A stretch of DNA of 59,947 nt, counting the filler, from Basidioascus undulatus (lineage: Eukaryota): assembly GCA_000826855.1 (NCBI GenBank). It is 6 parts of 6 records of this genome, joined end to end, with 100 filler letters (N's around TTAATTAATTAA, not from the genome) between each part and the next. Parts side by side here need not be neighbours in the genome. Positions count along the whole stretch, not along the records: positions 53,482 to 59,947 come from JTLS01001730.1; 5 more parts are not named here. The stretch is one strand, 5' to 3'. Within the stretch, counting starts at the first letter, position 1, and the number at the start of each line of letters is the position of its first letter. The position numbers and the translations under genes are program-made. Below are positions 4,634-59,947 of this stretch, in pieces. The notes beneath the pieces were generated by a model. That model saw only the letters and a list, made by a program, of their open reading frames with translations. It did no database searches and was not told where the DNA came from.

Positions 4634-6495
<1,862 letters not shown>

Positions 6496-10382: not shown

Positions 10383-10504
10383 GAATGTGAATCAGAACAA
10401 CAATTGCCGACGCTAAACATTCAACACGGAAACAACACTGTCAAAAGAGATCCACGCTCGCGAACGTCCAAAAACGAAACCAGCCTCCTCCCGCCGCGTT
10501 TGCT

Positions 10505-13085: not shown

Positions 13086-13185
13086 NNNNNNNNNNNNNNN
13101 NNNNNNNNNNNNNNNNNNNNNNNNNNNNNTTAATTAATTAANNNNNNNNNNNNNNNNNNNNNNNNNNNNNNNNNNNNNNNNNNNN
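13086..13185. other. Artificial contig spacer
   Basis: N44-TTAATTAATTAA-N44. Confidence 0.99.
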
Positions 13186-14781: not shown

Positions 14782-17003
<2,222 letters not shown>

Positions 17004-19602
17004 ACGCCAACCCTCCACCATATTATTCCTAATCCCTTTCATTCCTTTTCTTCCTTCGTTCGGTTTTGCGTGGTAGAGGAGGGCGTGAGATGATGGGAAA
17101 CCAAAAGACGCCCGGATCGATAGCAGGGCCGTAGAGGGACGGTCGGAAGGGACAACTTTACCCCAGGCTTCTCTTTTCTTTTCCTTTCTTTTTCTTCTTT
17201 AGGGAGGAGTTTGGGGAGGTGGAGTGGAGAGGAGAGGACTGTTGTGACGTTTCGCTGTGGATACGTTGATCCTGATGAAGAGAGATGCTAATGACCGCTG
17301 TTGAACGCGTACGCTTCGTTTAAGCAGCAAGCAAGAAGGACCATCTTTTGTGATATCAAGTTATTTGATCAATAGTGACCAGGTGGTGAAATGGAACGAC
17401 TCCAAGGGCATCGCAGTGTTGGAAAGCCACTGCGATGGGCCCGTTGTCTCGCCCTGAGCCGCAGCTTCATGAAGCGGTCGATGTTGTTAGGCCGGACTTG
17501 CTTGATTCTCTGCAGATTGTGTGATGGTGCTGTCGGGCTTTTCTATTGCGGCGCAGGCGACCACGGTCGAGCGGACGAGAGTCGCCAAGAAGAGCATAGC
17601 GGAGAGGTAGCCGGTAACGACGAACGAGTCGATTCTCATAAAGCATAGGGTCTACCAGCGCAGTGCAGCTTCACGTCAGGATACGGAATGCAGGCAATTA
17701 CGAACTCACGACCGTTAGCATGGCGGGCCACAGTTTGATGCCAGGCACGAAGGAGCTCTCCGAACAGTTGTGTAACATGAGGGTCTGATCGGTTGAGGTA
17801 TCATAGATGATAAGTGACACATTCCCATTCCCTAAAGCGACCAATCCACTCACCGCGATCGCCTGAATATCCCAGCAGAATAGTCAGGAGGCACCAAGTT
17901 GTCGAGCACCCAGTACGTAGTACACTTAGAGAGAAACAGGCAGAAAACCTTTGTATTGCTCATCTTCTTCGCCTCGGTGTTCCCCTGCTGACGTTGGTCA
18001 AGGCTATACGCTTGCTGGACGGCGAGCCAAGTGCGCAAGGATGAGTGCGCGGTGAGCGCCGCGCCGCACTGCGACGCAGAGAGCGATCCGGAGGACTAGG
18101 CCCAGGTTCGAAATATAGACGACTATTTTGAGAGGTTGAGCAGCGAGCGTGTCAGTGCGAGAGGCGGAAAGGCGAGCAGAAGGATGGTGACGGTCAATGG
18201 TCAAGGACGATCTCGGATTCATGGGTGCGTTTCGACGATCCGCGGGGCGGCACAGCCGGTGGCGGACGCCCAGACGGAAGGGCCGGAGAGTAAGATGAGC
18301 TCTTTACAATAAAATCATGGTAATACAAATCGTTTCATTCGCGACACGAGCAGATGCCACGGTAAAGGGTTCGGGACCAGCCATGCTGGTACAGGCTCTC
18401 AGATGTCAGAGGCGACTTGATCCATAGCGGAAAGAGTTCTACCAATGCCGTGCTTTTGTTTTTAGAGGCTGGGGTGACAGAGAAGGAATAAAGCGGGCGC
18501 GACGTTTGGGGGTGACCGGTGAGTTTTAACGCGAAGACCTGCTGTGGTCGTGTTCACACTGGTAGTACCGCACGCGCAAGCTGAAATGTACCAGTCCTTC
18601 TTGAGACACCTCAGCTCCCAGAGCGTGAAGGTTGAGCATACAGTAAAGTACCTACTTCCCTGCGCTGACGGCTCTCATCCGGCTTTTCCTCAGTCGAATG
18701 TGAGATCAGCTGCGAGCTATTGTAATATCGGACTCTTTTCAGAAGCTCAGTCATGTGCGGCGTCAACGTTGTTGCTCTCGATGCTTAAGGTCGGGACTGT
18801 GCTCAGGTGTGTCCCGCTGAGCAAGCCTGCCGCCATCTCGCCGACGCTGTGATCAGTTGCGGCGGCGAGGGGATTTTGGCCGACAAGTACAAGTGTGTTC
18901 CAATAGTTCTTACTTCACGCCCCCTAAAATTTCTACTGAATTGGCCGTATCCCTCTTTAGGGCCGTCGTGGACGGCGGCATGCAGTGCACTTTCATCCCT
19001 ATCTCTGCGACCCATCTGACCGTTTCGCTCACCTAGCCATCCCTCACATCCCGGGCAAGGTGCTCGAGGTCAGCCGACCATATCGGTGCCTCCTCCTTGA
19101 TTTTCTTCTAATACATGTGCATGTAGAACAACTTCGCCCGTTTCTATGGCGCAGACCACCCGTACGGCGGCAAGGAGAAGTCGAAGGAGTCCGAGATCGA
19201 AGGCGGACTGCTGACACACGTCGACACTCGTCCACAACTTAAACAGTACGCATAATTTTGGCGGCAAAGCATGTGCCTGAAGAACACGAGTTCGAGGAGC
19301 TGAAAATGAGCTATGACGAGTGCAAAAGGTTGACTACTTGAAAACCGATACGCGCTGTGAGAATGAATAAATGAGTACTTCAACTCACCAAATGCTTGTC
19401 TGTGAATGAGCGGAGAAGGTCATGCCTGCGGTTGGGAAGACGGCAGCAACCTTCAGACACAGGCCGATTGTACAGGCCGATGTACTGAGCCGGGCAGACT
19501 GGAGGTCAGCAAAACAAAAAAGGCAGAGCATGAGAGACGTTGCATTACTTCAAAGAGCCGGAGAGCAGTCGACTGCTGCAAGCGCGAGCAAAACGCACCA
19601 AA

Positions 19603-19674
19603 TGACCACTGCAGGGCTCGATCCTGCGACATTTTGCGTGTTAAGCAAACACTCTGCCAACTGAGTTAAGCGGC
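19603..19674 (-). tRNA. tRNA-Val (anticodon AAC), intronless; first nucleotide lost in the gap
   Basis: Cloverleaf: acceptor (N)GCCGCT/AGTGGTC plus A73, D stem ACTC/GAGT, anticodon arm TTTGC-TTAACAC-GCAAA, T arm GCAGG-ATCGAGC-CCTGC. A downstream TTTT could serve as a Pol III terminator. Confidence 0.9.
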
Positions 19675-19774
19675 NNNNNNNNNNNNNNNNNNNNNNNNNN
19701 NNNNNNNNNNNNNNNNNNTTAATTAATTAANNNNNNNNNNNNNNNNNNNNNNNNNNNNNNNNNNNNNNNNNNNN
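19675..19774. other. Artificial contig spacer
   Basis: N44-TTAATTAATTAA-N44. Confidence 0.99.
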
Positions 19775-20594
19775 GGGCGGGGGATTGCTGGATGGAGAGG
19801 AGAGGGGAGAAACTGAGGGGGGGAAAGATGGGGGAGGGAAGGGAACGCACCGAGCGAGAGAGAGAAAGCGGGGAGATCCACCCGTCGTCGGTGCCTTCCT
19901 CTGAGGAAGCGGACGACAAAGAGCGCACGCCCAGAAGGGACGACATGAGGCTATTACTCCGCTGCAGTGCGGGGGCTTTGACCGGGGTGGTCATGACGGA
20001 CGAGGCCGAGCTGGTCGACGCGAGGCGCGGGCGCCAGACGGCCGGCGGGCCGGAGAGCTTGCGTCTTCTCGAGGGGCCGGTGGTCGGTGAAGCGAGAAGC
20101 TGGGATGAGGTGGATGTAGTGGGTTGTGTGGCGATGGAGGTAGGGAGCGGCGCGGAGTGAGCAGAAACGCCGGAGGAGATTGTGGACAGCGCGTCGGGCG
20201 AGGCTGAAAGCGGCTGCGTCTTCTCCCTCTCCCTCTCCCTCGCAGGTTCCACCAGGACCCTCACAGCCCTCTCCACCCTCCCCTCCCCCTCCTCCTGCCA
20301 GTCCGTCTCCTCCTCCTCCTCATCCCACACCTCCGGCAGCTTCCCCCCTCCCACGCGCGCCAGTTCCTCACGTATCAAGCTCCCCGCCGTCCCCTCGCTC
20401 CCACTCGTGCTCGCGCTGGGGGACCTCGAAGCCGGCGGAGTGAGGGGGAGGGAGGAGCGGCGCGCGTCGGCGAGGGCCTGCCAGTCTGCTGCGGAGGAGC
20501 GGAGGACGGAGCGCGGGGTGGAGTCGGCGACGGCGTGCTTCGGCTGCTGCGCTTGTTTGCAGATCGGGCGCCCGGCGAGGGATTCGTAGCTCAT
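19775..20594 (-). CDS. Hypothetical Ser/Pro-rich protein, N-terminal exon; truncated by gap
   Basis: Long GC-rich open frame from MSYESLAGRPICK, with a probable GTGCGT donor near 19850. No recognisable domain. Confidence 0.5.
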
Positions 20595-23316
20595 TGCTTG
20601 GAGGACGCGGGAGTGTGTGCTCTCAGAGAAGAGGGTTAAGAGAAGAGGGTTGGTGGCGAAAGCAGCGGGAGGGGAGGAAGTCGAAGAACGCGGGGCAGTC
20701 GAGTCCCCCGTTGCCAACCACGGCCTGCCGTGCCAGACTCAAGTACTTGCGCTCGCGGTCTTCCTTATCGCGAGAGCCCCCGAAATTGCGCAAAGTTGTG
20801 CAGCGTCGTCAGGGTGGCGAAATGGGCGAAAGTGGCAAAGGGCTTTCGCGCAACGGGGTCAGACACGCCCCGTCATATTCACTCCACGGCGAGGGAGCCG
20901 CCTGTTTGGGACACCGCGAGGCAGGTGGCGGCGGAGCGGAACGTGAAGACGGATTGCGCGAAACGGAAGGACTGGGCGCGCGGTTTTGGTTGTTGCTCCG
21001 TTATGCTGTCTTGGGGAGTAAGTACAGTTAGGAGATAAGGATGGGAAGGTGTTCCGAGTTCCTGTTCTGGTGGATCCGAAGGCGTGTTGAGCGTGTTGAG
21101 CACCCGCTGATAGCAGCCGGTGCAGCATGCAGTGTGTACATGCGTCGCTTTGAACGGGAGCGTGCTCGGGGGGACGAGAAAGGAGAAGCATTCCGATGCT
21201 TTCAAGAATTACTGCCAGTGTGCGTCGAGGATAATCCCAAGCGGCTTAGCTCCCTCTCTCGTGTGTCGTTCCGACGGAGAACGCCGCCCACACCGGACTC
21301 GAGTCTCCCGTCCAATTTGCGTGGAACGGAAGAAGACAAGCTGAATGCCTAGATCCACTCTCAGACTTCCCATCCCCGCACTTCCATTAATCTGCCTATA
21401 ATGGCAAGACCCAAGGATTATCAAGGCCGCGACAGCCCAGCACCTTCTCGCATCAATGTCTGGCAGTCAAATCCTTCACTTGCGAGGGAGGTTTGAAGTC
21501 GACGTGCAGCTTACACCGCCCATAACCTCCATCGACACATACAAAACTTCCTCCCACTGTCCACAAACAGAACACTGCACAAACAACCTTTCTCATGATA
21601 CTCCCGAGCTCCGAGTTGCAACTCAGCCGGCAGGCGTAGATTCGAAGCTCGCAACGACGTACGTTCGACGCCGTCCGCGTCCGCGTGGGAGATCGAGGAG
21701 ATCAACCGACGCCGTGTACGGCATGCATGTCTCTCTATCCGGCCTACATGAAGCAGAGCTGGATCTCGACAGCGGTCAAATATCGCGCTCCTTCCGCGAG
21801 CGACACTGCGCAAGTTCGTTGCGCAACGGTACTGCATCACTTGTAGCATTTTCACCGCGAGCACTTAACGTTGTTGCATTTTGCGGGATTTAAATTCCTC
21901 ACGGATACTTAGTGACGAGCCAGTTTCTGGTATACTTCGGGTTGGAGGTACACTTACCCGCCGCTCGGAGCTTGAACCGAGTATTTTCAGAGCATTTTCA
22001 GTGTGGTAGATGCAACTGCTACCGACTCAGAATACCCGAGGGTGGCTCTATTCAGATTGAATTTCGTGCAAGTCTTGTTCAAAGGCATGATCAGAACAAG
22101 CCGGCAGTGCAGGAGTTGGCTGCAGTTCAGCATTCTCCCCCAGCGCCGAACTAGGAACCAGCTCGAAGGAACAAGCCTTGCCGCGTTGCGAGCCTCTCAA
22201 GCCGTTATCTATCGCGTTGTCCCCAATTGTAGTCATATTTTTTACCGCATCTCACCATTCCATTTCATTGCGTCTGCACTCGGCCGGGACGACCAAATAT
22301 GATGATCGGGTGTCGACTCACGCTGAACTCTTGCACACTGCTCGTGCCTTCGCAGTAGTCGCGCTTATTCTGACCCGCTAGGAACGGATTTCCAGCTGAC
22401 TGAGCAGAACCATGACTGTTCTGCAGGTGTGGCAGTTCTGCAGATGTGCCAGCCCCGGAAGGCCGGCCTGCAGCGAGCGGCAACCGTTCTTCCCGCCCAG
22501 CTCGTTCCATACAACGTGCAGTGCGTTCCACAACTCTTTAATGTACCACTTCCTTTCACCTTCTCATCGTTTCGCCCCGCTGAATGTCTTCGAGTTCTCG
22601 TCCGCAATGAGCGCCCCTACTTTCGCGAGCATGCTTCGCTTACGAGCCTGCCACAGAGCTCAGAGCTGCCCTGAAAGATCCCGAAGTTAAGGCTCTGCGG
22701 GAGGACGCGCTGCGAGGATGGCGAGGGAGGCACTGGCGGCACTTTGACCGGTTCCCAGGCTCGTAGAAAACGCAGTTCAATGCGCAAGGAATATGCGACT
22801 ATGCGATTCAGATGCCATGCTTGACACCGCCATCAAACAGCTCCCAAGCACTCACTACCGAACACGCGGTCAACCTGCGGCCAATCGAGCTACTTAGGAG
22901 TTGATCTTAAAGGTGCATGCGCAGAGTAAATTTACAAATTTAGGCTAACAGTATTACTCGCGTCGAAAGGAAGAGCGCTGGTCTGCGGGGGTGCCTCGGG
23001 TCAGCCAACAAGTTGCACCTCCGTGGCTGCCCGGATGCCGATATAGTGCACATTCCTTACCTGACACTGTTCAATGGTCCCTCAGTGGTCCTGTTGTTCC
23101 ACCCTCTCCCCCTGGCATTACATGGTACATCTCATGGTTCGGGAGTCCACGACGTCGACCCCTCCGGCAATCCACCGATGCGAACCAAAAGAGACTGAGA
23201 CACGGAAAAGGCCCTGGAAGCTTCGGTAACTGGGTACCTGTGAGGGTTCCGATCAAAAGCAATATCATGCAGGCATTGTCAACGCCACGCCGGTGCCAGT
23301 CAGCTTCGAGGCCTCT

Positions 23317-24100
23317 TTAAGCGTACCGCCCGACCGATAGCGCGTTGACCCCGACGCCCGCTGCTTTACAGGGGATCGCTCGCCCACACCTTTCTGAAAT
23401 GATTTTGAACAGGACTTCAAGTCCCTTCATATACCTCAGGCCAAACCACAGCAGCCCATTGCAAGCAGAAAGGTTTGCTGCCACCCTCACCAGCGTTTCC
23501 ACCACGCACCCACAGAGGAAGAAAACAACAATCCTACTCAGGCAGATGGTACAGAATTAGATCACATTTTTGTTGCTTCATTTAGATTCCAGCAACGGGT
23601 TGCCCAGCCGTGGGTGAGGGCGTGCTTGTCATCCCCCACCCCTTAGGCCGGTGATCTCGTCTAGCTGACTATGAAGGTCCGAGTCGGTTCTGGATCACCC
23701 AAACACCACAGGCTTTTCAATGCCCTCAGGAAGTGTTCATTGCCTTTCCTGCTGATGTAGGCATTGATATACTTCAGATTTGGCGCTCTGTGGACGATCA
23801 ACTCGATCAGCGGCGTGTTAAGGCTGCGGGTTCTAACGCAAGCCGAATCCCGAACGGAAGGCGGCCACGGCTTAAGGACCATTGGATCGTTATACAGGCG
23901 TAAGGAGCTATACATAACAAAACCGACACCGGTAGTAGAGGTGACGGTGAGTACCGAGCGTTCTTCCAGGGCCGCACTGCGTTGGCTCGCGTTCAAGGTG
24001 CACACTGTCTTGTTTGCGACGGCCAATTTGTTTCCAGGTGCCGGTCCGAGATCTTCACAGTGAGATGTCAAGAGAAGACGACAATGGAACGGCGACATTG
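23317..24100 (-). pseudogene. Possible degenerate F-box/LRR-like gene remnant
   Basis: Segments such as LIELIVHRAPNLKYINAYI and FLRALKSLW are LRR-like. No clean model could be built. Confidence 0.2.
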
Positions 24101-25361
24101 GGAAGCGTTGCCGGTGTCAGGGCGACTGCGAAGTGCAGGAACGGAACAAAGCTTGCGGGCTTGCAGTCGGGGGCATTGGCAGTACATATGATGTTCCGGC
24201 ATCGCAGAGCCTTCCCGCATTCAGATGATACACAGTTGAGGGTCACTGTTCGAAGGAGAGCGACCGAGGTAGAGCAGGTCAGACGGTGGACTTCAGCTTC
24301 CTTCGCGAACACCTATGCGGCGCCGATTGCCCTGCAACCAGACAGACTACGCGCAGGGCTGTTCATGCGAAGCTTACGAGATGCAATGCAGGGTGACCAG
24401 AACTACAACGACAGAATAGACCAGAACGAGAGACCCGGGGTGCGGCGCTCTACTTGGCGTAGTTCCAGACGTTGCGGAGGACTGCGAAGACCAGGGCGAG
24501 AAGTGTCAGTACCTGACTCGAGGTTGAGTGCGAGGGAGGTTTTTGCGCGGAGGGGCGGAGATGAGGTGGGAGGGGGAGGGGAGGAGGAGGGTGGGGCCTG
24601 ACACCCGCCGATCTCATGGAAGGAGACGGCGAGTTCTTATGCCCCGTCAAGGTCGCTCTTCGCCAACCAATTATCGCTTCAACCGTCCGTGGGAGCAAGG
24701 CGGAGAGCACTGTCTAGAAGGGGCGTGTAGGATTGTGTGTGGGGGAGGGGAAGGGAAGGAAAGGGGGGAGAGAGGAGAGGAGGACGTGGAAAAGGAGCCA
24801 AGCCGGGAGAGGGTCCCCAGACCGGCTCAGCCTGGTCCGTAATCCACGCCCTCTCGGTCTTCCCGTCTTTCACCCCGACCATAGCGCCAACCTCTACAGG
24901 GATGGAACGAAGACGAGGGCAAGATGGGCACGGGAGACGCACCCTTCCTCGGCCGGACCTTGAGCTTGTCCACCTTGTCTGTCCGCCCCACATCCCAGGT
25001 CAGATGCCCCGCAGCGCGTAACAGCTGGTATGATGTACTCACACAGCGCCTGGCGAGTGGGGAACATGGTTGGGCGATGGGGCGGGGACGATGGCGAGGA
25101 AGCAAGAAGGGACGGCGACGGGAGGCGAAGGGAGAAGGCCGACCGCGGATGAACGCCGAGGATGTCCGCGGTGTTTCCTTGGCCCAACCGGCCCAACGGT
25201 AATGATCCGCGCCGCAGCCGATCGCTCCTTGGTCCATATCCACCATTCCACGTCGACGGCCATCGCCAGCACCACCAGCACCATCATCAGTACCACCAGC
25301 ACAACACAACACCATCTCCTCAGACTCAGCCCATAAGCCCATCAACAACGGACCGCGCACG

Positions 25362-26260
25362 ATGGCCTCCTCGTCCGTCAAGCACAACTCAGGTGCGCAC
25401 TCCTCTCCTATCCGTGCACGCGACTCAATCGCCCACTCAACCCCTTCCTCCCTCCTCCGCACAGCGACCAAGCGCATCCTCTCCGAGCTGCGCGAGCTGC
25501 AGCGCAACCCGTCCTCGGACTTCCATGTCGAGCCGCTCGAGGTGTGTCCCTATCCCCTCCTCCCACTTCCGCCCACCTAGTCTGATTGATGTGGAACGCG
25601 AAGGACAACCTCTTCGAGTGGCACTTTACCCTCCGCGGGGCGAAGGACACACCGTTTGATGGAGGGCTCTTCCACGGGAAGATCCTCCTCCCCCCCGACT
25701 ACCCGTACAAGGCGCCGAGCGTGATGTTGTCCACCCCGAATGGGCGGTTTCAGACCAACACTAAGGTGCGCTCCCTTCTCCCTTCTCCCTTCTCCGTTCC
25801 CCGATCTGACTTCGGCCCTCCCCACCCAGCTCTGCATCTCCTTCACAGCCTGTGCGCATCCTCCATCCCCCTCCTTTGCCTACCCGCCTGGGAACTGAGC
25901 CCTCCGGACTGAGCAGTCCACGCAGAGCTCTGGCAGCCCGCCTGGGGCATCCGCACCATCCTCGTGGGCCTACAAGGGTTCTTCCCCGTCACGGGTGCGG
26001 AGGCCGCCGGCGTCGGCGGGATCGACACCCCGCCCGCCGAGCGCAGGCGGCTTGCGGCGCTGAGCAGGGCGTGGAAGTGCGAGGCTTGTGGCGGGAGGAG
26101 CAATGAGGAGCTGCTGGAGGATGAGGATGAGGGGGTGGGTGAGAAGGAGAAGGAGGAGAAGGCGGAGGAGAAGGCGGAGGAGAAGGAGAAGTATCCGTCA
26201 GCCAGCGACCCCTCTCCGCCCTCAGAAACAGCGGACCCCACCCCGTCCTCAGCCGCACCC
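25362..26260 (+). CDS. UBC6: Ubiquitin-conjugating enzyme E2, UBE2J/Ubc6 family (UBE2J1-like); 3' end in gap
   Basis: ATKRILSELRELQ, PLEDNLFEWHFTLRG, TPNGRFQTNTKLCISFT (TPNGRF replaces HPN and the catalytic Cys is present), WQPAWGIRTILVGLQGFF, SRAWKCEACG. Confidence 0.92.
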
Positions 26261-26360
26261 NNNNNNNNNNNNNNNNNNNNNNNNNNNNNNNNNNNNNNNN
26301 NNNNTTAATTAATTAANNNNNNNNNNNNNNNNNNNNNNNNNNNNNNNNNNNNNNNNNNNN
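26261..26360. other. Artificial contig spacer
   Basis: N44-TTAATTAATTAA-N44. Confidence 0.99.
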
Positions 26361-26417
26361 TCCTCCCCTACCCCTTCCCATCCCCCCTCCTCCCACTCAC
26401 CCCCTGCCCGCCGACAG

Positions 26418-29245
26418 ATCATTGTCCGCGCGCGGCAATCGCACCTCTACACGCTCTACCTCTCCCAGCACCCGACCCTCACGCCCGCCGTCCTCACCGA
26501 CCTCTCCTCCGCCCTCTCGCACTACACGGTCAAAGCCTCCTCCGCTTTCTCACTCCCCGCCCCCTCCTCCACCGCCGATGCGGACATCGAGTCCTACGCG
26601 CGCACCGTCCTCGAGCGTGCGCAGGACAAGGCGACGCTCGACGGCTGGGCCAAGGCCGAGCCGAAGGCGCCCATGTATGTTGCGGCGCTGAAAGCGACGG
26701 TGGGGGCGCTGGATGCTGCACGGAGCGGGCTGGAGAGCGGGAAGGTGGGGAAGGAGGAGACGGAGAGTGTGCTGGAGGGCGCGAAGGAGGCGCTCAGTCT
26801 GTGGCTGGACAAGCAGGTGCGTCGTTCTCCCTCTCCCTTGCCATCCCCATCCTCCTTGCCTCCTCTCCACACGCTGACACCCCCCCTTCCCCTCCAGTCC
26901 GGAGCGACCATCACCGACCCCGCGATCTTCCGCACCCTCGCCGCGCACTGGGAATCATCCTTCTTGGCGGACATGTCCGCCCTGAACGTCGAGCGGCCCG
27001 ACACGCTCACGCGTGTCTCCGAGTACGTCCCCGAGATCGTGTCCTTCGTCGAGCGCATCGTCGGCAACGGCTTCGCCTACGCCGCGCATGACGGGAGCGT
27101 GTATTTCGACACGCGCGCGTTTGACGGGGCCAAGGCTAGGGGCGGGGAGGAGTGGGTGCATGAATATGCGAGGCTCCAGCCGGGCAGTAAGGGGAATCGG
27201 GAGCTGATTGAGGAGGGGGAGGGTGAGTCGCGCTCCGCCACTTCACGTCCTTTCACCCGAGCCCTGACATCTTGCGCCTGTGAAAGGCTCCCTCACCTCC
27301 GGCCAGGGCAAGCGCTCCCCCGCGGACTTTGCGCTCTGGAAAGCGTCCAAACCCGGCGAGCCCGCATGGCCGTCGCCTTGGGGCGCGGGACGGCCGGGGT
27401 GGCATATCGAGTGCAGCGTGCGTCGTTTCGCTGTCCCTCTCTTTCCCTGTCCTCCTTCATCTTTGTGGTTCGAGAGAAGGAGGGGCAGGAGGATGACAGT
27501 GCTGATTCGTGGTTGGGATGGGGCACACGGAAACAGGTCATGGCGAGCGAGGTCCTCGGCAAGGGGATGGACATCCATTCGGGCGGCGTGGACTTGATGT
27601 TCCCGCATCACGATAATGAGCTTGCGCAGTCGGAGGTAAGTCCCTCTCCCGACCTTCCCCCTTCCCTCTCCACCCTCCCTTCGATCCGAAGGAGGAGGAA
27701 ACAGAGATGCGGGGACTGATGATGGACGGTTGTCTGTGCAGGCCTTCCACGGCTGCAGGCAGTGGGTGAACTACTTCTTGCATACGGGCCATCTCCACAT
27801 CGAGGGCCTCAAGATGTCCAAGAGCTTGAAGAACTTCATCACCATCGAGGTGCGTCTCCCATCCCGCTTTCCCTCTTCCTTCTCTCGCTGCGCCGCATTG
27901 CTGATCGGGAGGTGCGGGTGGTGGATGAACAGGAAGCGCTCGAGACCTACTCGGCCCGACAGCTCCGTCTCGCGTTCATGCTCCAGCTGTGGAATGCGCA
28001 GATGGACCTCAAGGAGAGCGCAATGCAGGAGGTGCGCACGCTGGAGACGTCGTTGAACGTAGGTGCTTCCCCTTTCTTCGCTTCTTTTCTTTGGCGGGAC
28101 GTTGAATACTGGGACTGATTGGTCTTGGTCGATGCGCACAGAACTTCTTCCGGAACGTCAGGGCGCTCGTTTGGGAGGAGCGCGCGAACGGCGCGCAGTG
28201 GGACGGGAAGCACCACTACGACGCGGCGGAGAAGGAGCTGACTGAGAAGTGCGTCCATCTCTCCCTCTCCCTTTCTCTACCTTCTTCCTTCCGGCATGTT
28301 CTGACCCCTCCTTCCCTCCTCTTCCGAATAGCTTCAACACCTCCCGCGCGTCCGTGCGCACGGCGCTGTGCGACTCATTCAACACCCCGGCCGCACTGCA
28401 GCACATCGCGGACCTCGTCGGCGCGACCAACGTGTACATCGCGCGCGGGCGCGCGGCCGTCAACGTCCACGTCGTCGAGAACGTTGCACGCTGGGTTACG
28501 CGCATGTTCAGGATCTTCGGCGTCATCCGCGACGACGAGCGCGCGGAGCTCGGCTGGGGGAGCGGGGAGGCGGGCGCCGGTGCAGTGGACGTGAGTAGCG
28601 TTCTGCTCCGGTCAGGAGGACAGAAACTGACGAGAGGGGTGGGATGGGATGGGCAGCGCGATGAGGTCCTCATGCCGTACCTCCGCGCGCTCTCAAACTT
28701 CCGTGACGAGGTCCGGAAGCTCGCGAAGGAGGGCGCGCCGGCGAAGGACATCCTTGCGCTCTGCGACCGGTTGAGGGACAACGACCTTGTCGAGCTCGGC
28801 GTCGCGCTGGATGACCAAGCTGGTACGGCATTTCTCCCCCTTCCCTATTTGCCATTACAGAACGTCGATTCTGACGATGCATGCTGTCCGCACAGATGGC
28901 AAGGCGCTCGTCAAGCTCGTCCCCGCCGCGGAGCTGATCGCCGCGCGCGACGCGAAGGCCGCAGCGGCAGCCGAGAAAGCCGCGAAGGCGGCCGCGCGGA
29001 AGGCGGAGGAGGAGCGCAAGCGGCTGGAGAAGCTCTCTCGCGCCAAGATCGCCCCGGCGGACATGTTCAAGCCGCCGTACGTCCCCGCGGGGACGTACGC
29101 CGAGTTTGACGAGCAGGGCGTGCCGACGAAGGACGCGGAGGGCGTGGAGCTCAGCAAGAAGCGGAGGAAGGGCTTACTCAAGGAGTGGGAGGTCCAGGGG
29201 AAGGCGCACCAGGAGTGGGTCGAGGCGGGGAGGCCGGAGGCATGA
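26418..29245 (+). CDS. CRS1: Cysteinyl-tRNA synthetase (eukaryotic type); 5' end with HIGH motif lost in gap
   Basis: [74 protein letters not shown] (KMSKS), ALCDSFNT and a eukaryotic C-terminal extension. Confidence 0.97.
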
Positions 29246-34033: not shown

Positions 34034-34583
34034 AGGATAGGATAGATGGGGAGGTGGGTGGGGGCATGTTTCCGGGCTGTATTAGTGAATGTTCGGGAGG
34101 GGCGTGCTTTCGTTCGACACGGCTGCGTGTGCGCTTGGGACTTGCGGGTTGGCTGAGCAGAGCAGCATGATGGTCGTCAGGTTGCGGTAACGCTCATGCA
34201 GGAAAACTGAAAGAAACTTCGGACGTGGGGACGGGCCGTCTTCGGTACTTAGGATGTGGTGGGTAGACGTCGCCAACGTCTCCAACATCACAGATCTTCC
34301 TGATTCAATGCAGAATACACTGATGTGCTCGCAGATTATACCTGTTGACGGGCGGTTCGGGCAGTTTCGAGGACGCCGCAGTCCTGCCTGCGGTGAGTAG
34401 GTTGCGTGCATGCTAGTTCATGCGTGGATATGCGCAATGTATGAATCGGCGAGGCCCAAGATTTTGCCTTTGAACGATATATAAGAGCAAATGAGAGAAT
34501 ATTGAAGAAATACGGAAATTATGCAGACTAAGGGAAGGAAGAGAATGCGAAGGGTGTAGTAGTAGAGAGTAATTGGTTGTGGA

Positions 34584-36213
34584 TCAAATCTTGACGCAAG
34601 AGTTGCCGTTCGCGACCTTGAAGCCAGTCTTGCATTGATAGACTGTAGTCCACGAACGATTAATTTGAGTGTTTACTCGGGATCGAGATACGCGTTTACC
34701 TTCGCAACGCCCGCTGTTGCAGCCAACACGGCCCTTGACGATGTTGGGGATCTCGTTGCAGTCGTCGCCGTCACCCACTGCGAGGGCGCCTCAGTCTTCA
34801 CCCATGGTCCTGGGGTACAAGATCCATGAACTTACGGTTCGGGCAGCCGCCACAAGACTCGATGTCGTTTTCTGACATGCAGTCGAACTGTGCAGGCATA
34901 CCAGCGAAGCGTGCTCCGAACACGGGGCACGCCCGGCTGTTGGAGAGGCAGTCTACGGTCGTTCCTCGTAAATATCGCGTTGCAGCTGAGTATTGTCATG
35001 AAGACGCACTCTCATCGTCCCAGGCGTGGCGGGTCAGATCTACGGTGGGCTCGGTGAACGACTTGCGCGAGAGCCGGAAGGTGCTGGCGGGGGCGGGCGG
35101 GGAGACCAGGCTTTTGGTGGCACGGCTACAGAGGCGGTGGGAGTCGAGCCACTTGAAGCCGGTCTCGCATTTGGGCTTGCCTGATGTTTATAATAACTCT
35201 TCAGAGGATCTTATTTACGCTCGAAAGAGGATGTCGCTTACTGGGGCAGTCAGCGTTCTTGGGGACGCAGCTGTCGAGGTCAAGGCCGTCAGAACACCCA
35301 TCTCATGTGACAGATGAGCAAGAAGTTGTAACGCACTAACCAACCGCCTTGTTCAATCTGAAGAGCCTAATGAGTAGGTGCAAATTAAACCATATTGAGG
35401 AGCAGCGTACCCCGACTCATGCCAAACCCATTGGTCCGGGCATTTCTGAGGACGACCCGATGAGTGCGTTGGCCCTGAACCGGCAACCGCAGAAGCTTAC
35501 CTGGTCCTTAAAAGGGCACTCCCTCTCGGGGAGGTCTAGGTCGATACATTGCTTGAAGAGTGGGAAGAACCACCCATTCTTGCACTGGACGCCGCGCGGC
35601 GGCTGCGCAGGCTTGCAGCAGCGGTCGATGAGGTGCCACTCGTGGCCCGCCCCGCATTCGGCATCGGCGAGTTCGAAGGGAGGGACCTATGTAAGAGATG
35701 GTGCGTTCAAGGAAACAAGACCTCATTGGAAGGGTAAGGGTAAAGGGCTTACGCAAAGCTCAAGCTTGTCGTGCCAGTACCACTTGATGGGACTGAGAGG
35801 CAACCGTCAGTCTCCCAAGCAGCTCGTCAAAGACAATGAAGTTACCAGGTCCGCTTCTGTCTGTCGTTCTTGGGTGGCTGGTAGACAAAAGACTATTGAG
35901 ACAAAAGAACTTTGAAAAGGTAGATTGGCTAACCGACCTGCTTGCAGAAACCCGGAAGGTCGAGCCGGACATCAAGGCGAGGGATGTCGATGAGGTCGCC
36001 TTTGGGCGTGGAGTATGTGAAGAAACCGGCCTTCGTCGACTTGCAAGACTTGCCGTGAGGGCAGTTGGTAGCCCACTGTTTTCCAGTGCCTCAATGATTC
36101 AACTAGAGTCCAGGCAGGGATAGCGTGATACTCACGTTAAAGAAAGTGGCCTCTGCAGGGAGGGCGACGGAGAGCGCTGCGCCGACGACGGCGGCAATGG
36201 TGGCGGTGCGCAT
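34584..36213 (-). CDS. Secreted Cys-rich PriA/CPL1-like protein (multi-exon)
   Basis: Signal peptide MRTATIAAVVGAALSVALPAEA, internal Cys/Trp repeats, and a C-terminal ACPV...FDCM..NDIESCGGC...GDDCNEIP...VGCNSGRCEVYQCKTGFKV...SCV domain typical of PriA/CPL1. Confidence 0.85.
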
Positions 36214-37352
36214 GTCGACTGAAAAGGAGCGTGGATTGAAAAGAATGTGTTGTTCAAGTGAATGTAGCTTTATTCTTGTGAGAGAGGGGTCCTCGTTGAG
36301 AAGGAGAAAGAGGTGCAAGACTGCGAAGACAAAGTCGGCCACGAGGCCCTTTACTCCCCTTCAGGTCGAAAGGGGCTCCGAGCGGTGCGATGGGTCCGTG
36401 ACACACCATCAGGTACCGGGTGTGAAGGTGCCTGCAGGAAGGTATCACATGGAGTGAGCCTCGTGCACTTGCACGGGCCCTTGAGGAAGTACCTGCGATG
36501 ATTGGAAGCCCGAAGGCCGTATAATCTCCTGGATGTCTTAGGTTGATGAATAGTACTGTCCAGAAGCTGCCTGAAACTGGGGGTGCGTCGCGAAACTGGC
36601 GCTCGGCCCGCTTGAAAGCGCTCGTGCGAGCGAAAGTGGGACAGGTTCTTCTCACCTTCGCTCTGATCAACAACTCCCGGGTGCGGATTATTGCTTTGCC
36701 GGAGAGGGGATATTCCAATCAATGCGTTCGTTGTGGATGTTAGCCATCTTGAACAGCGAAGCAAGCGGCATTCTACATCGCTCATGGAACAAGTGCGGTT
36801 CAAGAACGGATTTTAGTTCTTTCTTGAAACATTACCCACTGTCAACCTTCCCAAGCCTTCCCATTCTTTGTTCTGAGAACGCAAGAAAGGCAAGAACGGT
36901 GCTCAAACTGTACCGCTCCGAAGCGCGACTTTCATGGCTTTTTGACAATGAACATAGACATCTTTCGAGAGTCATGTACGACAATGCATCGTTCAGCCTC
37001 CAAACAATTTTCAAGAACGCTTCCGGAACGCGACCCTCTCGATTTATCCTGTCTGCAGGCCTGTCCATGTTCCTCGTTATTGAAAAGGTTTTCAACACGC
37101 CTCTTGAATGTTTTCGACAACGTTCCCGAGTACGATTCTTGGGAACGTTTTCGAAAAAGGCGTTTGGGCCCTTCCTTCACATCGCTGATCATCACGAAGC
37201 GACTTTATACCTTCGCTGATTGGCTCTGCTCGCCGACCGATCACCGTTTTCTCACGCGGTCTTCGACGCTGCTGCTTTCACACTTACCCTTATCTGCTCG
37301 CCCTGTGCGTACTAACCAGCTTGCACTCTGCTCCTACTGACCATCATCGATC

Positions 37353-53381: not shown

Positions 53382-53481
53382 NNNNNNNNNNNNNNNNNNN
53401 NNNNNNNNNNNNNNNNNNNNNNNNNTTAATTAATTAANNNNNNNNNNNNNNNNNNNNNNNNNNNNNNNNNNNNNNNNNNNN
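53382..53481. other. Artificial contig spacer
   Basis: N44-TTAATTAATTAA-N44. Confidence 0.99.
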
Positions 53482-53634
53482 GGAAAAAAAATAACCGATG
53501 AGTCTTCTGCCATGGAAAGCTACGGATATGCCTCGCTGGTTGTCCGCGGCCGTAGCGATAACATTAAAATCACTAGACCCGAAGATTTGCCGATTGCTGC
53601 TATGCTCATGCAACAACAGAATATAAGTGATTAG
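53482..53634 (+). CDS. ispD: Bacterial 2-C-methyl-D-erythritol 4-phosphate cytidylyltransferase, C-terminal fragment
   Basis: GKKITDESSAMESYGYASLVVRGRSDNIKITRPEDLPIAAMLMQQQNISD*, containing the IspD TDE.SA.E and NIKIT.PEDL motifs. AT-richer than the surrounding DNA and intronless. Confidence 0.93.
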   Translation, partial: GKKITDESSAMESYGYASLVVRGRSDNIKITRPEDLPIAAMLMQQQNISD

Positions 53635-53645
53635 GAGCAGGAAAG
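53633..53645 (+). promoter_or_regulatory. Shine-Dalgarno-like purine-rich site ahead of ispF
   Basis: AGGAGCAGGAAAG overlaps the ispD stop and lies directly upstream of ATG 53650. Confidence 0.6.
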
Positions 53646-53649
53646 ATTT

Positions 53650-53794
53650 ATGTCAATGCGAATAGGCAATGGTTACGACGTTCACGCGTTTGGTAAGGGC
53701 GATAAAATTGTTATTGGCGGTGTTGTTATTCCTCATCATCATGGTTTGATCGCCCATTCGGATGGTGATGTGCTCTTGCATGCCTTATCAGATG
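53650..53794 (+). CDS. ispF: Bacterial 2-C-methyl-D-erythritol 2,4-cyclodiphosphate synthase, N-terminal fragment
   Basis: [48 protein letters not shown], containing the RIG.G.DVH and HSDGDV..HA..D motifs. Homology stops at about 53794. Confidence 0.96.
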
Positions 53795-54383
53795 AGCGCT
53801 GGGTGCCGCGGAACTGGGCGCCCGGCTGAAGGCAGCCGCGACCGGAAGAGGGGATGCGTAGGCGGGTGATGTCGATGAGGGGGTCGGGTCGGGGGGCTAA
53901 GATGGAAGAGGAGGGAACGGAGGAAATGGAGGGTGGATCGGGTCGATGTTGTCGTGGTGGAGAGTCGGATAGTGAGAGGGCGCCTGCCGAGCCGGGGGAG
54001 GAGGTTGAGGAGTGTGGTGGGGAAGGGAGGGCGGTGTCTGGGGTATGAGGAGAAGACGCAGATGCAGATGGTCGAGGGGTCGGCCGGCCGCGCTGGTGGG
54101 TTGTGGACGAGGACGAGGCCGACTCTGGCGAGTGCGAGGAGCGAGGGGGCGACGGCAAGGGATGATCGACGGGAGCAGCAGCCGTGCGCCCGCCCTCGCC
54201 CTCGCCCTCGCGCTCCAATCCCACCAGTTCCCTTTCCTCCACATCCCTCGCCTGCGATATCTCTGTTGATTCGACGACAAGGGCAGGCATCGAGGGCGCG
54301 TCGTCAGGCTTGATCTCTGCTGGCTGCGGGCCTGGGGGCGGGAGGGGCGTGCGAGATGCCGCTACGGGCGAGGAGGACGGCAT
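53795..54383 (-). CDS. VID24: Vid24/GID4 family protein, 5' part, interrupted by bacterial DNA
   Basis: A disordered Ser/Pro N-terminus is followed by [29 protein letters not shown]. This matches the L.PG..F.G.Q.S start of the Vid24/GID4 beta-barrel. Confidence 0.75.
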
Positions 54384-56179
54384 CTCGATGGGCGCCAGGG
54401 TGGATCACAATGCGCGTAGGCGTCAGGTGAGCGCAGAGATGGTTTATTTTGAAAGCTAGTGTGTACAAGTGTGGATGTGTTAAAGCGAAGATGGGTGTTG
54501 AGAGCGACCTGCTCATTGTGATCGACCCCGCGACGGGATTGTCACGAGGAAGGCTTGCGAGCCTAGCATCGGTGCATGGAATCTGAACGACCGAAATGCA
54601 CGCCGCAATTACGTCAGTTTCCAGATTGCAACATGTTTCCCGGTCTTCCTTTTGCGACTCCTGCACTTTGGGCAGTCGAACAGTACCGATGACCAATTTT
54701 CATAGAATATCCTAACTGCAAGGATGCTGTTTCTATAAAGGTGAATGAAGGGGCATAATGTTGCTGCGTGGAGGCAGGTTCGGCTCGCCAGGTGCTGGCA
54801 GACGCCCTGTCCGCACAGTCGTCTGTCTCTGAGGCCCCCTAGGCTGTGCATTCTAACGAGGTATATCACAATAGGAAGACGCTTCGCGCGAACGTGGACC
54901 TTGGAGGTGCACGCAGAGCACCACAAACCCTTCCGAACGCTTGCTACACCAACAGTTTCAGCACTATCGCCAGGTTAGCTGCCTTCGAGAAAGGGTCTTG
55001 ATCTTTCGTATCGTTTGCTGAGTAGCATTTCACCCTTCAATAAAGCACATGGAAAGGATAAAGTGTTCCTATAACAATGACTGGCAGTCGCAAAGGAGCG
55101 ACGTACAACATTATGCCCGCGAGGCTCTCGCACAGCTGTGACAATTCCCGCTTTTGTCCTCGTTTATTTTACCAAGAGGCCCGACAACTATCTTCCTAAG
55201 TAATGGTTCCTCAACGGGTCCTGGATAGGTGTAGCCTATGAATGCCGGAACAGTCAAAGAAGCATCGCTCTGCAGGCTACCGGACCCGAGGACAGGACGG
55301 CGACACTCAACTGTTTACGGCAAGACTGCTCATGTCACCATCAAAGAGAACTACGATATAAATCCACAAGTTCAGTTGAATTCTGCCTTTACGAGCACAT
55401 GGACCTGTGGTCTTGAGCTCTCGCAGAAAGCCTCAGCGAAGACTACGGAGAAAGGTGGGTAGGCTGGAAACCCTCCATGTAGAATCGAGTTGTATCTCAC
55501 TTGAGTGGAAAACAGGGTTGGCCGTATGTGCTTTCAATGGCGGTAAGGGTGGATTCCCCTGAGCGCAAGGTTACAACGTCCAGCATTGACAGCATACTGC
55601 ACCCTCAAGCGCCATCAAGCAGCTGCTCCCAGCTACATTGTAACGATGACCACTACACAATGATTCAGGTCCAGGAACTTGTTTGAAAAGTACAGAACCT
55701 AAGAAGCTGCCCCTCTGGTTTGACACTTTCAGGCAAGCAAGCGCCTTCAAAGTGCGAAGGGGCGACGTGGCCAACGTGGTGCTCAACGAGTTTGACGGCA
55801 AAGAAGCTTTACGAAGCTGCTTTATGCCCATCTTAGGTCTCCCTTGGGGCCCTTGTTGAGGATACAGGGTGAAAAATATTGTTTCGGATGGGCAATGTTC
55901 AGCATTTTGCCAGCATTACTGAGCGAGCTGCCGAGGCTGACAGCCTGAGGACGCACATCGGGCTCGCAAACTACACGTGGTGCAGGCCGCACACGGTCGA
56001 TCGAAACAAGTTCCAGAGCAATTATGTACGATCGTGGTCCCCTCAGTCCTTCATCCAAACCGCCTCGCGAATGCCATTGACTCTTCTTCGCTTGCCTGAA
56101 TCGTGCATGGGCCGTGGCAGGCTGGGTCCGCGGAGAACCAGCGAGGGGTGGGCAAGTGTGTAGCTGCAAGAGCGGCCCA

Positions 56180-57330
56180 GGCTCGAATACGCTGCTCCTG
56201 GACAGGAGTGATATCGAGTGGCTCTCCGCGTGGATGGGGTCAGCCCTTCGGGCTGTAAAAGGGGAAATCAGTGTGCCAAAAGTCCTCGAGCTTTGGAAAG
56301 GCCTCGAGCTTTGTGAGCACGCTCATCTGTTGGAAGTTTTAGTGGTCGCTCAAAGGTGATCTTTTAAGGGGACGAAACATGGCTCACGTGGTCGGAGAGC
56401 AGCCGGAAGAAGTGGATTATATCCTCGTCGTGATGGAGGGCTAGTGACGAGATATTCGGAAACCAGTCGATCGGCGAGTCGATTTTATAGATAATGTAGT
56501 ATAGCAAGGTACGAAAAGGACTTCGACACCTTCTAAATGAGGCGCCCAGTCCCCAGTCTGCCATGTCCTCCCATACCTCCATGAGAGCACAGTGACGTAG
56601 CACCGGCGACAACCCCTGAGGACCGAAGAACTCGAGAAGTCCCGCGTCGCCGATAAGGCTGAAACACGCAGCTTGTGCTGCGAGAAAGTATCGTTCTCGA
56701 AGCTGGATTCTTGGAGATTGATCGCGTCAAGAGCAGGACATCGAGCGAGGAAGGCGACACACTCGGGTGGCAGATGGAACCCCGTCAGGGTGAGGAAAAG
56801 GAGTCTGGGCCAGAGGTGAACACCGTGCATTTCTGCACGAGCTAACAGGTCTTCAAACATATTGTTGTTGTTGGCCGAGCACCCTGAGCTGGTGATACGG
56901 ACGTCGGGCAGAGGCGCAATGGATGCGGATATCTTGAAGATACGTGAACGTGAAGGCGAGTTCCGTGGGGAGATCAATGATGTGAAGCTGGGTGAGCGAC
57001 GAGACGAGGGAGGAAGAGGAGGTCCGATCGCGGTGGATCGAACCGGGGAGAAGTCCAGCGGTTGATCCTTGTGTCTGGGCGGTATCTATCGTAGAACGAC
57101 AGCCGAAGCTTGCGCAACCGCGAGAGTGAGAGCAGCGAATGAAGGCTGTTGTACAAGTTCGAACGATGCTTCTCTCGCTTGATACACTTGATGTATAAGT
57201 TGAGAGAAGTTGTGTTTGGGACGAATCGAAGAGAGCGTTACGCTCGCCATAGCGCTACTCGATCGGTGAAAGGCAAAGAAGCTCCCCAGCTGACGATATA
57301 CTCGCCGAGTTGGGGTACCGACAAAAGTGT
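56180..57330 (-). pseudogene. F-box/LRR(RNI)-like gene, apparently degenerate
   Basis: LLSLSRLRKLRLSF, HLWPRLLFLTLTGF...FLARCPALDAINL, HLEGVEVL, with an in-frame stop near 56975. Confidence 0.4.
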
Positions 57331-59378
57331 CCGTTCGAGATAAGGTGTGTTATTCTGCGAATTAGGTGAGACGAAGCCTAAAGGTGCTTATTGACGACCA
57401 AGTAAAGTGGGCGTGAGGTCAGAGCAAGTGCGTGAAGTGACGCGGGCGGGACAGCCTGACCGATGCGACCGAGGAGCTCGACGGCGAGCGTAGAGAGTCG
57501 ATCCACTGGTGTATGTATCTCCGCTGTCACTCCCTGGCTGTTCGACCATGGCCAATAGAAGGAGCTCACGAGTAGAATCCCCCCTCTTCTTGCGCCAGAG
57601 AATGTTGATGATATCGATGTGTAGGATTCAAGAGTAGGAGGGAAGGCGCAATGACCGTCAACGGTAGAGGGGCAGCCGCCTGTTTGCTTAGGATGTGAAC
57701 GATGCACCGGGCTCCTATTTAACAAAGTAAGGTAAGTGTTACTGAGAACATGTGTCTTGCTTAATAAAGAAAGCAGCTGTAGCAATCAAGACCGGGACTG
57801 CTGCAGGACAGTCGAGGCGAAAGGCCGAGGCGAGAACGTCGCGAGACGGAGGTGTGATCGCTCACACCTCTCCCCCCTGCGGTTTCTGATAGCTAAGCCC
57901 AATTGAGTCGTTTTTGTCCACCTTTGAATGGAGATTATAATCTATATACAGTGCCCGAAATCCACCACACCCAGTGCGGCGACGTGAGTCTTGTGCTGAA
58001 AAGGAAGAAACTGACCTCGGCCTGCCCTTGGGACGAACACGCGCAGGCGGATAGGCGCGCAGGACGTCCTCGATGCACTCTTTCGCCGCCGCTCAGCCCC
58101 TCGAGCGGACGAGCTCGACGGTCGCGAGGCGGACCTCGTCGTCCTCGAGCACATGCTGCAGGAACAATCCCAGGCGTGTGTCCGCCAGGACGACTTGTAG
58201 CCGTGGCCGTGAACGCCTTTGTCAGGCATGCTGAGGAGGCGTGTGTCGTGCGGCATGATGCTGCTGGGGCGAGGCAAGGTGAAGGTCGGAGCTGCTTGCG
58301 AGGGCGCGCGTGGCATCGGAAGAGGGGGGAGCGGTGTCGCTGGTTTGAGCGGCTGTCGAAGCTGTGGATGTATAGGCGTGGGCGGCGGTAGCGTGTGCGG
58401 CCGCAGCGGAGGCGATGCGTGGCGCAACGGTGCGTGAAGACTCGGGGCGGCAGCGACACCCAGCAAATCGTTCAGATACCACTCAACGGATTAGAAGCTA
58501 GATTTACGCACCTAGAGTTATTTGGCATATTGTGGGGTTGGATGGGGCTCAAGGTCCCAGTCGTGGAGAAGGGGCCGCAGGTCAAGTCTGAGAAGGTCTG
58601 GTGAAAGACGGCGTGGGGCACCGGTTCAGCGGTTGCGAGTTTACGACGAACAGGGACGATGAAATGGTGCACGTACGGCTACATCAGCGGCGGCTCGTCG
58701 GTGGTGTAGTGCAGTCGAGACTGCGTATTAATACCTTCCAAACTAGTGTGACCGTAGTGGGCTGTGGGCGCTGCAGAGGCTAGTTGAATTACGATGGTTG
58801 GAGGAGGGGATGATTTTTGCGGGTTGAGTAATGGCAGCGGGCGGGTTGTGTCGCTGCGTCACGATGGCGGCCAGCTGCGAATCCCGTCTTTACGAAGTCG
58901 TCGGGTATCGGCATATTCTTGAAGCGACCTCCATATGCTGCGGGTGTTGTCTGCTTGAAAGCATACCATTGAGAGGTGGATCAGAAGTAAAAATTCCCAA
59001 CAGCGAAACGGACTGCAGTCTGGCGTTCAGCATCGTTCAGATCCCTTCACACATACGCGACAACTGCAACTACCGCCAGAACGGCAAGACGTGCAGTCGA
59101 TCTCAAATTGAACGAAGCGTGGATGTGAAAGCGCATGCGAAGCCAAGTGTGTGTGCTGCAAGGGTGTGTACAATGCACTGCAATTACGAACGAGTGAAGA
59201 ATGCGTGCGTTGCGAGTGTGAAAGGGGTGTGAACCTGAAATGCGAAAGCTACCAGAAGCGCAAGAAACGACTATTCGGCATGAACTCGAAAAAGAAGGAA
59301 GGAATGTGCAGTGAAGAGCTCGCAAGAACCAAGAAGATTAGCAAGAAACAAGAAGATCGCAACTGTGCCACGAAAGCC

Positions 59379-59885
59379 TCAAGCGTCCACCATCCCGACC
59401 TGTATCGCCGCCCCGACGCCCAGCATATTTACGACGCCCTCCATCAGCCCCAGCACGGCCCGCTCCGCCTGCAACGCGTCACTTTCAGCCCTCGCGCGCC
59501 TCGCAGCAGCCTCCCATGCCTCGTGTGCAGCGCGCGCCGAGTCCTGCACGCGTGCCTTGAAGGCTTGATCGCGCTCGCGCTCCATGCCCTCGAGCACGCG
59601 CGCGCGCGCCTCCGAAGCACCCAGGGCGGCTTCCAGCTCCGCGATGCGTGCGTGCGCGGCGGACAGGGAGGCTTGCTGGGCTGCTGCGGAGGCCTGGAGG
59701 TCCGCAAGCTGGGCTTCGAGGGAGGCGAGTGCGGCGGTGTGCGAGGATGTGAGGGACGAGAGGGTTGCGGCGTGTGCGGTGTCCGCTTCGAGCAAGTCTG
59801 CTGCGTGCGCGGCTTGCGCTTCGGCCAGTTCGGACGAGGCGGAGTGGGCGAACGCGAGGAGCTGGGCTTCGAGGGCCGCGATGCG
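59379..59885 (-). CDS. Coiled-coil protein, terminal exon; 5' part beyond window
   Basis: After a CTAAC...CAG acceptor: RIAALEAQLLAFAHSASSELAEAQAAH...LEAQLADLQ...RIAELEAAL, with Ala/Glu/Leu heptads and strong GC3 bias. Confidence 0.65.
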   Translation of the reverse strand, partial: RIAALEAQLLAFAHSASSELAEAQAAHAADLLEADTAHAATLSSLTSSHTAALASLEAQLADLQASAAAQQASLSAAHARIAELEAALGASEARARVLEGMERERDQAFKARVQDSARAAHEAWEAAARRARAESDALQAERAVLGLMEGVVNMLGVGAAIQVGMVDA

Positions 59886-59947
59886 CTGGGCGAGCGCGTC
59901 GGAGGGATGGGTGTATCAAGGTTAGTAGAGGCGAAGGAGAGGAAAAG

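Follow-up and report, generated by a model that had tools for sequence, protein, structure and literature searches.

The last contig of the analyzed stretch of Basidioascus undulatus DNA (JTLS01001730.1) opens with 312 bp of a bacterial ispD-ispF gene pair that passes without a gap into a fungal GID4/Vid24 gene, and we consider it very probable, at about 90%, that this contig end is an artefact, namely a chimera with contaminant or co-sequenced bacterial DNA; this figure also takes in the less likely case of an in-silico misjoin. We favor this reading, first, because the bacterial piece is terminal and has no second flank, and because it consists of two fragments which are cut in mid-domain and is identical at the protein level to IspF of the Cellvibrio type. 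Second, the reading is favored because the punctuation of a bacterial operon is kept, the differences from bacterial relatives are mostly synonymous, and the composition is unlike that of the adjoining GC-rich fungal DNA. The position at the tip, the near-identity to a free-living lineage and the distinct composition are those of a contaminant chimeric end; both the artificial nature of the join and the type of artefact behind it are inferred. No working biological unit is present here; neither bacterial gene is complete. As a biological feature, the fusion is most likely not real.

The window, by which we mean the whole stretch of DNA that was analyzed, is 59,947 bases long and is made up of six contigs (1-6495, 6596-13085, 13186-19674, 19775-26260, 26361-53381 and 53482-59947) connected by five identical linkers, each of the form N44-TTAATTAATTAA-N44. 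The artificial linker at 53382..53481 marks position 53482 as a contig end. The assembly is fragmented, and the last contig (53482-59947) has a length of 6466 bp, of which the first 312 bp are the bacterial piece. This contig begins in the middle of ispD, and a second fungal flank is absent beyond the bacterial piece. The GC content of the six contigs in the window ranges from 0.555 to 0.641. A domain scan was carried out with 105 ORF pieces of at least 45 residues, taken from the terminal 600 bp at all 12 contig ends, and a bacterial domain was detected at 1 of the 12; at the other 11 ends the same scan gave no bacterial domain. Further Cellvibrio-like sequence was not seen in the six contigs, and since only one of the 12 ends is bacterial, contamination is not visibly widespread in them.

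Several side observations were made in the other contigs. The sole domain at the other 11 ends is a eukaryotic one (PAP_assoc, 6598-7194), and ORFs with eukaryotic domains, including protein kinase, class I Cys-tRNA synthetase, PIG-X/PBN1 and DEAD helicase, are found in these contigs. For the Cys-tRNA synthetase ORF (26361-27719), the best named matches belong to Basidiomycota, with identities of 47% or less; the top named match is from Microbotryum lychnidis-dioicae (47% identity over 60% of the query), followed by matches from Rhodosporidiobolus, Phenoliferia, Rhodotorula and Sporobolomyces (42-46%). These matches identify the host as a basidiomycete-like fungus, and none of the named proteins obtained is from a close relative of it. 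In the whole window, Rfam gave only one tRNA.

The bacterial piece occupies positions 53482-53793. The preliminary description had rightly located it at the start of the contig, and had assigned it 313 bp instead of the actual 312 bp; the feature end that it gave, 53830, is already 36 nt into the fungal sequence. The 3' end of ispD (53482..53634, plus strand) comprises the last 50 codons and a TAG stop: positions 53482-53631 encode 50 residues in an open frame, and the stop codon follows at 53632-53634. The translated piece corresponds to profile positions 177-220 out of 221 in Pfam PF01128 (E 5.9e-10; 39.7 bits, with a cut-off of 27) and to positions 179-219 out of 219 in NCBIfam TIGR00453 (E 4e-10; 39.5 bits, with a full-length cut-off of 181.3). 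The catalytic domain of IspD is incomplete, with only the last 44 of the 221 profile positions, because the contig starts inside the gene. The spacer of 15 nt (53635..53649, plus strand), as read from the sequence, is accompanied by SD-like elements, AGGAG at 53633-53637 and AGGA at 53639-53642, which would serve in ribosome binding. The 5' end of ispF (53650..53793, plus strand) starts with an ATG at 53650 and comprises the first 48 codons, MSMRIG...HALSD. In Pfam, residues 3-48 correspond to positions 1-46 of the 155 in the YgbB profile (PF02542; E 1.6e-17; 64.7 bits vs a cut-off of 26.7), and the piece matches TIGR00151 at positions 1-45 of 155 (E 8e-18; 65 bits vs a full-length cut-off of 116.45). 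Both pieces score under the full-length cut-offs of NCBIfam because they are only fragments, and judged by their E-values the ispD and ispF family matches are far beyond chance. The homology to IspF stops at residue D48, at base 53793, and the protein is incomplete, the full length being about 155-159 residues.

The layout of a bacterial operon is therefore kept throughout, with open frames, a stop codon, a 15-nt spacer, an SD-like site and a start codon. The translations together with the Pfam and NCBIfam matches bear out what had been described before, that is, the end of IspD and the start of IspF in bacterial order and 15 nt apart, and the SD-like site was found again as AGGAG/AGGA around the spacer. 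The lower GC content that had been reported is also seen, with 0.442 in the bacterial piece (53482-53793) vs 0.67 in the next 312 bp and 0.567 in the rest of the contig. The presence of such genes in a fungal record is foreign to the known distribution of isoprenoid pathways: according to PMC11192765, eubacteria and plastids have the MEP pathway, and archaea and eukaryotes have the mevalonate pathway.

The source of the bacterial piece was examined at the levels of protein, DNA and gene order. A relatives search with the 48 IspF residues gave 7076 proteins at E<=0.001 among 7124 candidates, and PF02542 is present in all 120 of the IspF relatives listed out of these 7076 matches. The 48 residues are 100% identical to two database proteins, P0002 and P0003. 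P0003 is a full-length IspF of 159 residues, and P0002 is a partial IspF of 143 residues which is the same as P0003 throughout and lacks the last 16 residues; it might stem from another contig of the same bacterium in the dataset. The named relatives among the matches listed are Cellvibrio mixtus (98%; P0005 and P0041), a Cellvibrio sp. MAG (92%) and C. japonicus Ueda107 (90%). When loci were searched with P0003, using one genome per prokaryotic species, at least 538 stretches were obtained, and among the best 80, in which C. mixtus and C. japonicus are not represented, the 17 best bear the names Cellvibrio, Cellvibrionaceae or Gammaproteobacteria MAG in their titles. The 312 bp are colinear with the ispD-spacer-ispF region of the Cellvibrio-like loci at 74-76% DNA identity (for example, 76.3% of 334 nt for locus L002 and 73.7% of 342 nt for locus L003), and the best DNA identity of about 76% among the best 80 loci is a lower bound for the closest genome. 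In all six best-scoring loci (L001, L002, L003, L004, L006 and L009), IspD is encoded directly upstream of ispF, and the IspD C-terminus shares 72-83% amino-acid identity with them.

The pattern of substitutions is that of a maintained bacterial gene. Compared with seven Cellvibrio-like loci, the 48 ispF codons differ at 23-31 of 144 nucleotides and at 2-4 of 48 residues, and the codon differences comprise 15-23 synonymous and 2-4 non-synonymous ones. Such a pattern suggests that the ispF piece has been under purifying selection as a bacterial gene, with no decay apparent, and on sequence grounds the 312 bp are best regarded as a fragment of a normal, selectively maintained bacterial gene pair. 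The Gammaproteobacteria-like donor proposed earlier can be sharpened to a Cellvibrio-like one by the complete identity to P0002/P0003, the 98% identity to C. mixtus and the gene order. The donor is a Cellvibrio-like gammaproteobacterium, an assignment that stops above the species level. Compared with the ispD-ispF (ygbP-ygbB) region of Cellvibrio and other Gammaproteobacteria, the contig has the same gene order, a short spacer and the same kind of IspF start; in contrast to these loci, ispD is represented in the contig only by its last 50 codons and ispF by its first 48, and the DNA identity to the best of the 80 loci is about 76%.

On the other side of the junction, the N-terminal 197 codons of a fungal GID4/Vid24 are located on the minus strand (53793..54383), as indicated by the ORF, its relatives and tblastn. 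The ATG at 54383 is a putative start only. The fragment consists of a disordered Pro/Ser-rich region followed by a conserved stretch that ends in FRGTQRS. The minus-strand ORF as such is longer (53739-54383), with 214 codons from the ATG at 54383 and a stop at 53739-53741. Its last part (53739..53792, minus strand) is an accidental read-through tail of 17 codons plus the stop in reverse-complemented ispF; it is not a real CDS, and it has no similarity to the post-motif residues of the 80 relatives that carry the motif described below. When the 214-residue ORF was compared with Pfam, no family was obtained at E<=1, because only about 13 residues of the domain precede the breakpoint.

The identity of the fungal gene was instead obtained from its relatives. 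An exhaustive HMMER search using the last 68 fungal residues (53793-53996) gave 81 proteins at E<=0.001 (lowest E-value 1.6e-08), and in 80 of the 81 the matched stretch ends at the last residue of the query. The motif F.G.Q.S is present in 80 of the 81 relatives and is directly followed by G in 78 of these 80; beyond the motif and the G the sequence remains conserved, mostly as ..SY[DE]V and then.V.I. The Vac_ImportDeg family (PF09783) is above the cut-off in 26 of the 81 relatives, as a sub-threshold partial match in 7, and in none of the remaining 48. In the 26, the family match always begins with profile position 2, at a point inside or just past the stretch that the query matches. The 48 relatives with no PF09783 match are mostly short and end soon after the matched stretch, and they are read as first-exon gene models; many short models diverge about 13 residues past the motif, a pattern which suggests a conserved intron at about that distance. 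One full-length relative, P0138, matches the solved structures of human GID4 (E 4.4e-50) and yeast Vid24 (6swy_4, E 1.1e-20), and in this comparison the motif falls at the beginning of the GID4 domain. The earlier identification as Vid24 is thus upheld by the 81 relatives, by PF09783 in 26 of them and by the GID4/Vid24 match of P0138.

Similar to known GID4/Vid24 proteins, the substrate receptors of the GID/CTLH E3 ubiquitin ligase (PF09783; 6ccr, 7nsc, 6swy), the fragment carries a PDPL.DITRLR...CL.PGA.F.G.Q.S stretch, and in the relatives this stretch leads straight into the Vac_ImportDeg domain. Unlike them, the contig holds about 13 of some 162 domain positions, which alone is below the Pfam threshold. 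On the strength of this similarity, the fungal ORF is identified as GID4/Vid24, cut about 13 residues into the Vac_ImportDeg domain of about 162 positions. When 12 Vid24 relatives were compared with the window by tblastn, matches were located only at 53793-53897, and 11 of the 12 end exactly at 53793; for the rest of the Vid24 domain, no match at E<0.1 was obtained elsewhere in the six contigs of the window, the other matches having E-values of 0.13-0.9. A whole-ORF search with the 197-residue N-terminus, in which 8000 candidates were scored, gave none at E<=0.001, and low-complexity words probably crowded out the relatives there. No usable match to the Vid24 fragment was obtained in the ESM Atlas.

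The two sides meet at a sharp breakpoint, which is fixed by the end of IspF, the ends of the tblastn matches and a serine codon. The last IspF codon, GAT (D48), occupies 53791-53793, and the Ser codon of the Vid24 motif, TCA on the minus strand, occupies 53793-53795. Since base 53793 fits both sides and 53794 (G) also suits the first base of an Ala codon found in IspF relatives, the breakpoint is placed at 53793/53794 with at most 2 nt (the TG at 53793..53794) shared. The gapless switch near 53794 to Vid24 on the opposite strand, as reported in the preliminary description, therefore stands, and so do its truncation points, with ispF ending after HALSD and Vid24 after GTQRS. Both genes are cut inside conserved domains, IspF at position 46 of 155 and Vid24 about 13 residues into its domain of 162 positions.

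A chimeric contig end could have arisen as follows. Cellvibrio-like DNA would have been present in the sequenced material, either as a contaminant or from a bacterium living with the fungus, and it would have been joined to the GID4/Vid24 locus outside the cell. By one route, a chimeric library molecule or read would lengthen the fungal contig by an overhang shorter than read scale, and by another, the assembler would make a false join at the contig tip. The fungal gene would then only seem truncated at the point where the contig switches template. Draft genomes of eukaryotes are commonly contaminated with bacterial sequence: in a ContScout survey of 844 proteomes from eukaryotes, including 272 from fungi, contaminant proteins were found in 43% of the fungal species (bioRxiv 10.1101/2022.11.17.516887). 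In that preprint, its authors state that chimeric contigs exist and are likely rare, and therefore the present case is not trivially expected. Contaminated draft assemblies, as treated in PMC8862208 and in the ContScout preprint (10.1101/2022.11.17.516887), resemble our case in that foreign bacterial sequence stands in a eukaryote record, at a contig tip, with a distinct composition, near-identity in protein sequence to a free-living bacterial lineage and an HGT-like appearance. They differ from it in that here the foreign piece shares its contig with host DNA, a situation that ContScout calls rare, and is only 312 bp long. Among the titles and abstracts covered by our literature search, there was no report of Cellvibrio in a fungal assembly and no claim of MEP genes in fungi.

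The purely computational form of such an error, in which the tip of a low-coverage Cellvibrio contig was linked with the fungal one by way of a short sequence common to both and no chimeric molecule existed, appears improbable. This explanation can draw on two observations at the junction. The BLAST alignments to L001, L002 and L003 extend 15-17 nt beyond it, and exact runs shared with the ispF continuation of the relatives are present, when positions 53794-53833 are compared with that continuation and 2000 control pieces from the same contig are used as reference. The longest runs are 9 nt with L003 (GCTGGGTGC, from 53798) and 8 nt with L006, lengths that are reached by 10 and 21 of the 2000 controls, respectively. 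However, in five of the seven relatives the shared run is only 4-7 nt, which is at chance level (171-1978 of the 2000 controls reach it), and bases 53794-53797 are already fungal and encode the conserved R-S. The longer runs are located to the right of the breakpoint, in fungal sequence, so that they do not mark a crossover point, and they are probably coincidental. In addition, assemblers work with overlaps longer than 8-9 nt. Microhomology was also considered as the cause of the join more generally, and it is unsupported overall, given the chance level in five of the seven relatives and the position right of the breakpoint.

A real and very recent integration of Cellvibrio-like ispD-ispF DNA into the first coding exon of GID4/Vid24 is, in our estimation, very unlikely. 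According to this explanation, the substrate receptor (N-degron receptor) of the GID ubiquitin ligase would be knocked out, and the contig would break inside the insert; a basidiomycete-like fungus would be living with a cellulolytic Cellvibrio-like bacterium, and the transfer would have been caught before decay. The two sequences are indeed contiguous in the deposited assembly, the clean breakpoint with 0-2 nt shared is equally typical of real end-joining, and loss of GID4 is tolerated in yeast. The remaining Vid24 domain was not found in the window, which says little because the window holds six contigs only. Against these points, the insert ends at the contig tip with the second host flank absent, no gene is complete, and signs of residence in the host are missing. 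The fragment also shows neither amelioration nor decay, with 100% protein identity in IspF and a GC content of 0.44 vs 0.67, and no selectable function can be seen in two incomplete genes whose pathway is not used by fungi.

Real transfers from bacteria to fungi typically involve complete genes with host DNA on both sides, recur in related strains or species, and are adapted to expression in a eukaryote; no such trait is seen here. Kominek et al. (2019) are said to have described a bacterial operon acquired by yeasts, and our contig is comparable to that case in that genes of bacterial operon type adjoin fungal DNA. Moreover, bacterial HGT claims in draft eukaryote genomes have often proved to be contamination, the tardigrade case in PMC8862208 being an example. 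The preliminary description had already preferred a chimera or contaminant at a contig edge to an insertion, and we keep the same ranking, based on the terminal position, the pristine state, the mid-gene cuts and the foreign composition.

Contamination from a cloning host or vector (E. coli or a plasmid), the commonest bacterial source in older clone-based assemblies, has a negligible probability, as the best protein and DNA matches are Cellvibrio-like and a sensitive blastn search of 5,426 complete E. coli genomes and 72,556 plasmid records gave no match at E<=1e-5.

In conclusion, the bacterial ispD-ispF piece at the edge of this Basidioascus undulatus contig is best explained by a chimeric contig end, and its immediate importance lies in the quality of the data. 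We recommend trimming the contig at 53793/53794 and flagging the Vid24 model as partial rather than disrupted. The assembly should also be screened for Cellvibrio-like sequence, which avoids false HGT calls and the false assignment of an MEP pathway to a fungus. As biology, two functionless bacterial gene fragments at the tip of a fungal contig are probably unimportant; a junction that proved real would offer a rare view of bacterial DNA newly integrated into a fungus. By the preferred reading, that of a chimeric end, a Cellvibrio-like bacterium would have been present in the sequenced material, and its presence may reflect plain culture contamination or a natural association between a cellulolytic bacterium and the fungus or its substrate.

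The window consists of six separate contigs, as is evident from five identical copies of an artificial linker (N44 - TTAATTAATTAA - N44; 6496-6595, 13086-13185, 19675-19774, 26261-26360 and 53382-53481), and features that seem to cross these linkers are not real neighbours. Five of the contigs are about 6.5 kb in size and one is 27 kb. The second contig also opens within a gene that its end has cut: a Cid1-family poly(A) polymerase-associated domain (PAP_assoc; 6598-7194, plus strand, E 9.7e-14) begins there almost at the first base. The third contig ends (19674) directly at a tRNA-Val gene with anticodon AAC (19602-19676, minus strand), which was predicted by ARAGORN, whose coordinates extend 2 nt into the linker, and which scored 52.1 bits with Rfam; the contig may have broken at a repeated tRNA gene. 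Apart from the bacterial piece of the last contig, GC content below 0.46 in 300-bp stretches of the window was found only at 701-1000, 34401-34750 and 36801-37100, all of which are contig-internal.

Just past the junction in the last contig, the fungal sequence at 53796-53811 has exact runs of 8-9 nt in common with L006 and L003, two Cellvibrio-like loci, in the part where their ispF continues, and such runs were absent in the five other Cellvibrio-like relatives. These short matches are probably a coincidence in GC-rich sequence. On the bacterial side, the protein collection contained, under the source tag 'src', a C-terminally truncated IspF of 143 residues (P0002), which is identical to the longer IspF P0003 as well as to the 48 IspF residues of the window, and P0002 could originate from a separate contaminant contig in the same or a similar assembly.

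On the fungal side, among the 81 Vid24 relatives (P0122-P0202), many short gene models depart right after ...V.V.I(V/L), about 13 residues past the F.G.Q.S motif at which the Vid24 of the window is cut, while in the full-length relatives this segment is followed by DV.F..S.L.GYL. This pattern suggests a conserved Vid24 intron position, which would lie shortly downstream of the cut in the gene of the window. For a Cys-tRNA synthetase ORF (26361-27719, plus strand), the named proteins that matched best came from Basidiomycota (Microbotryomycetes and relatives); their identity to it is only 42-47%, and the matches cover about 60% of the query. Judging from these matches, the named proteins found seem to include none from a sequenced fungus closely related to the host.
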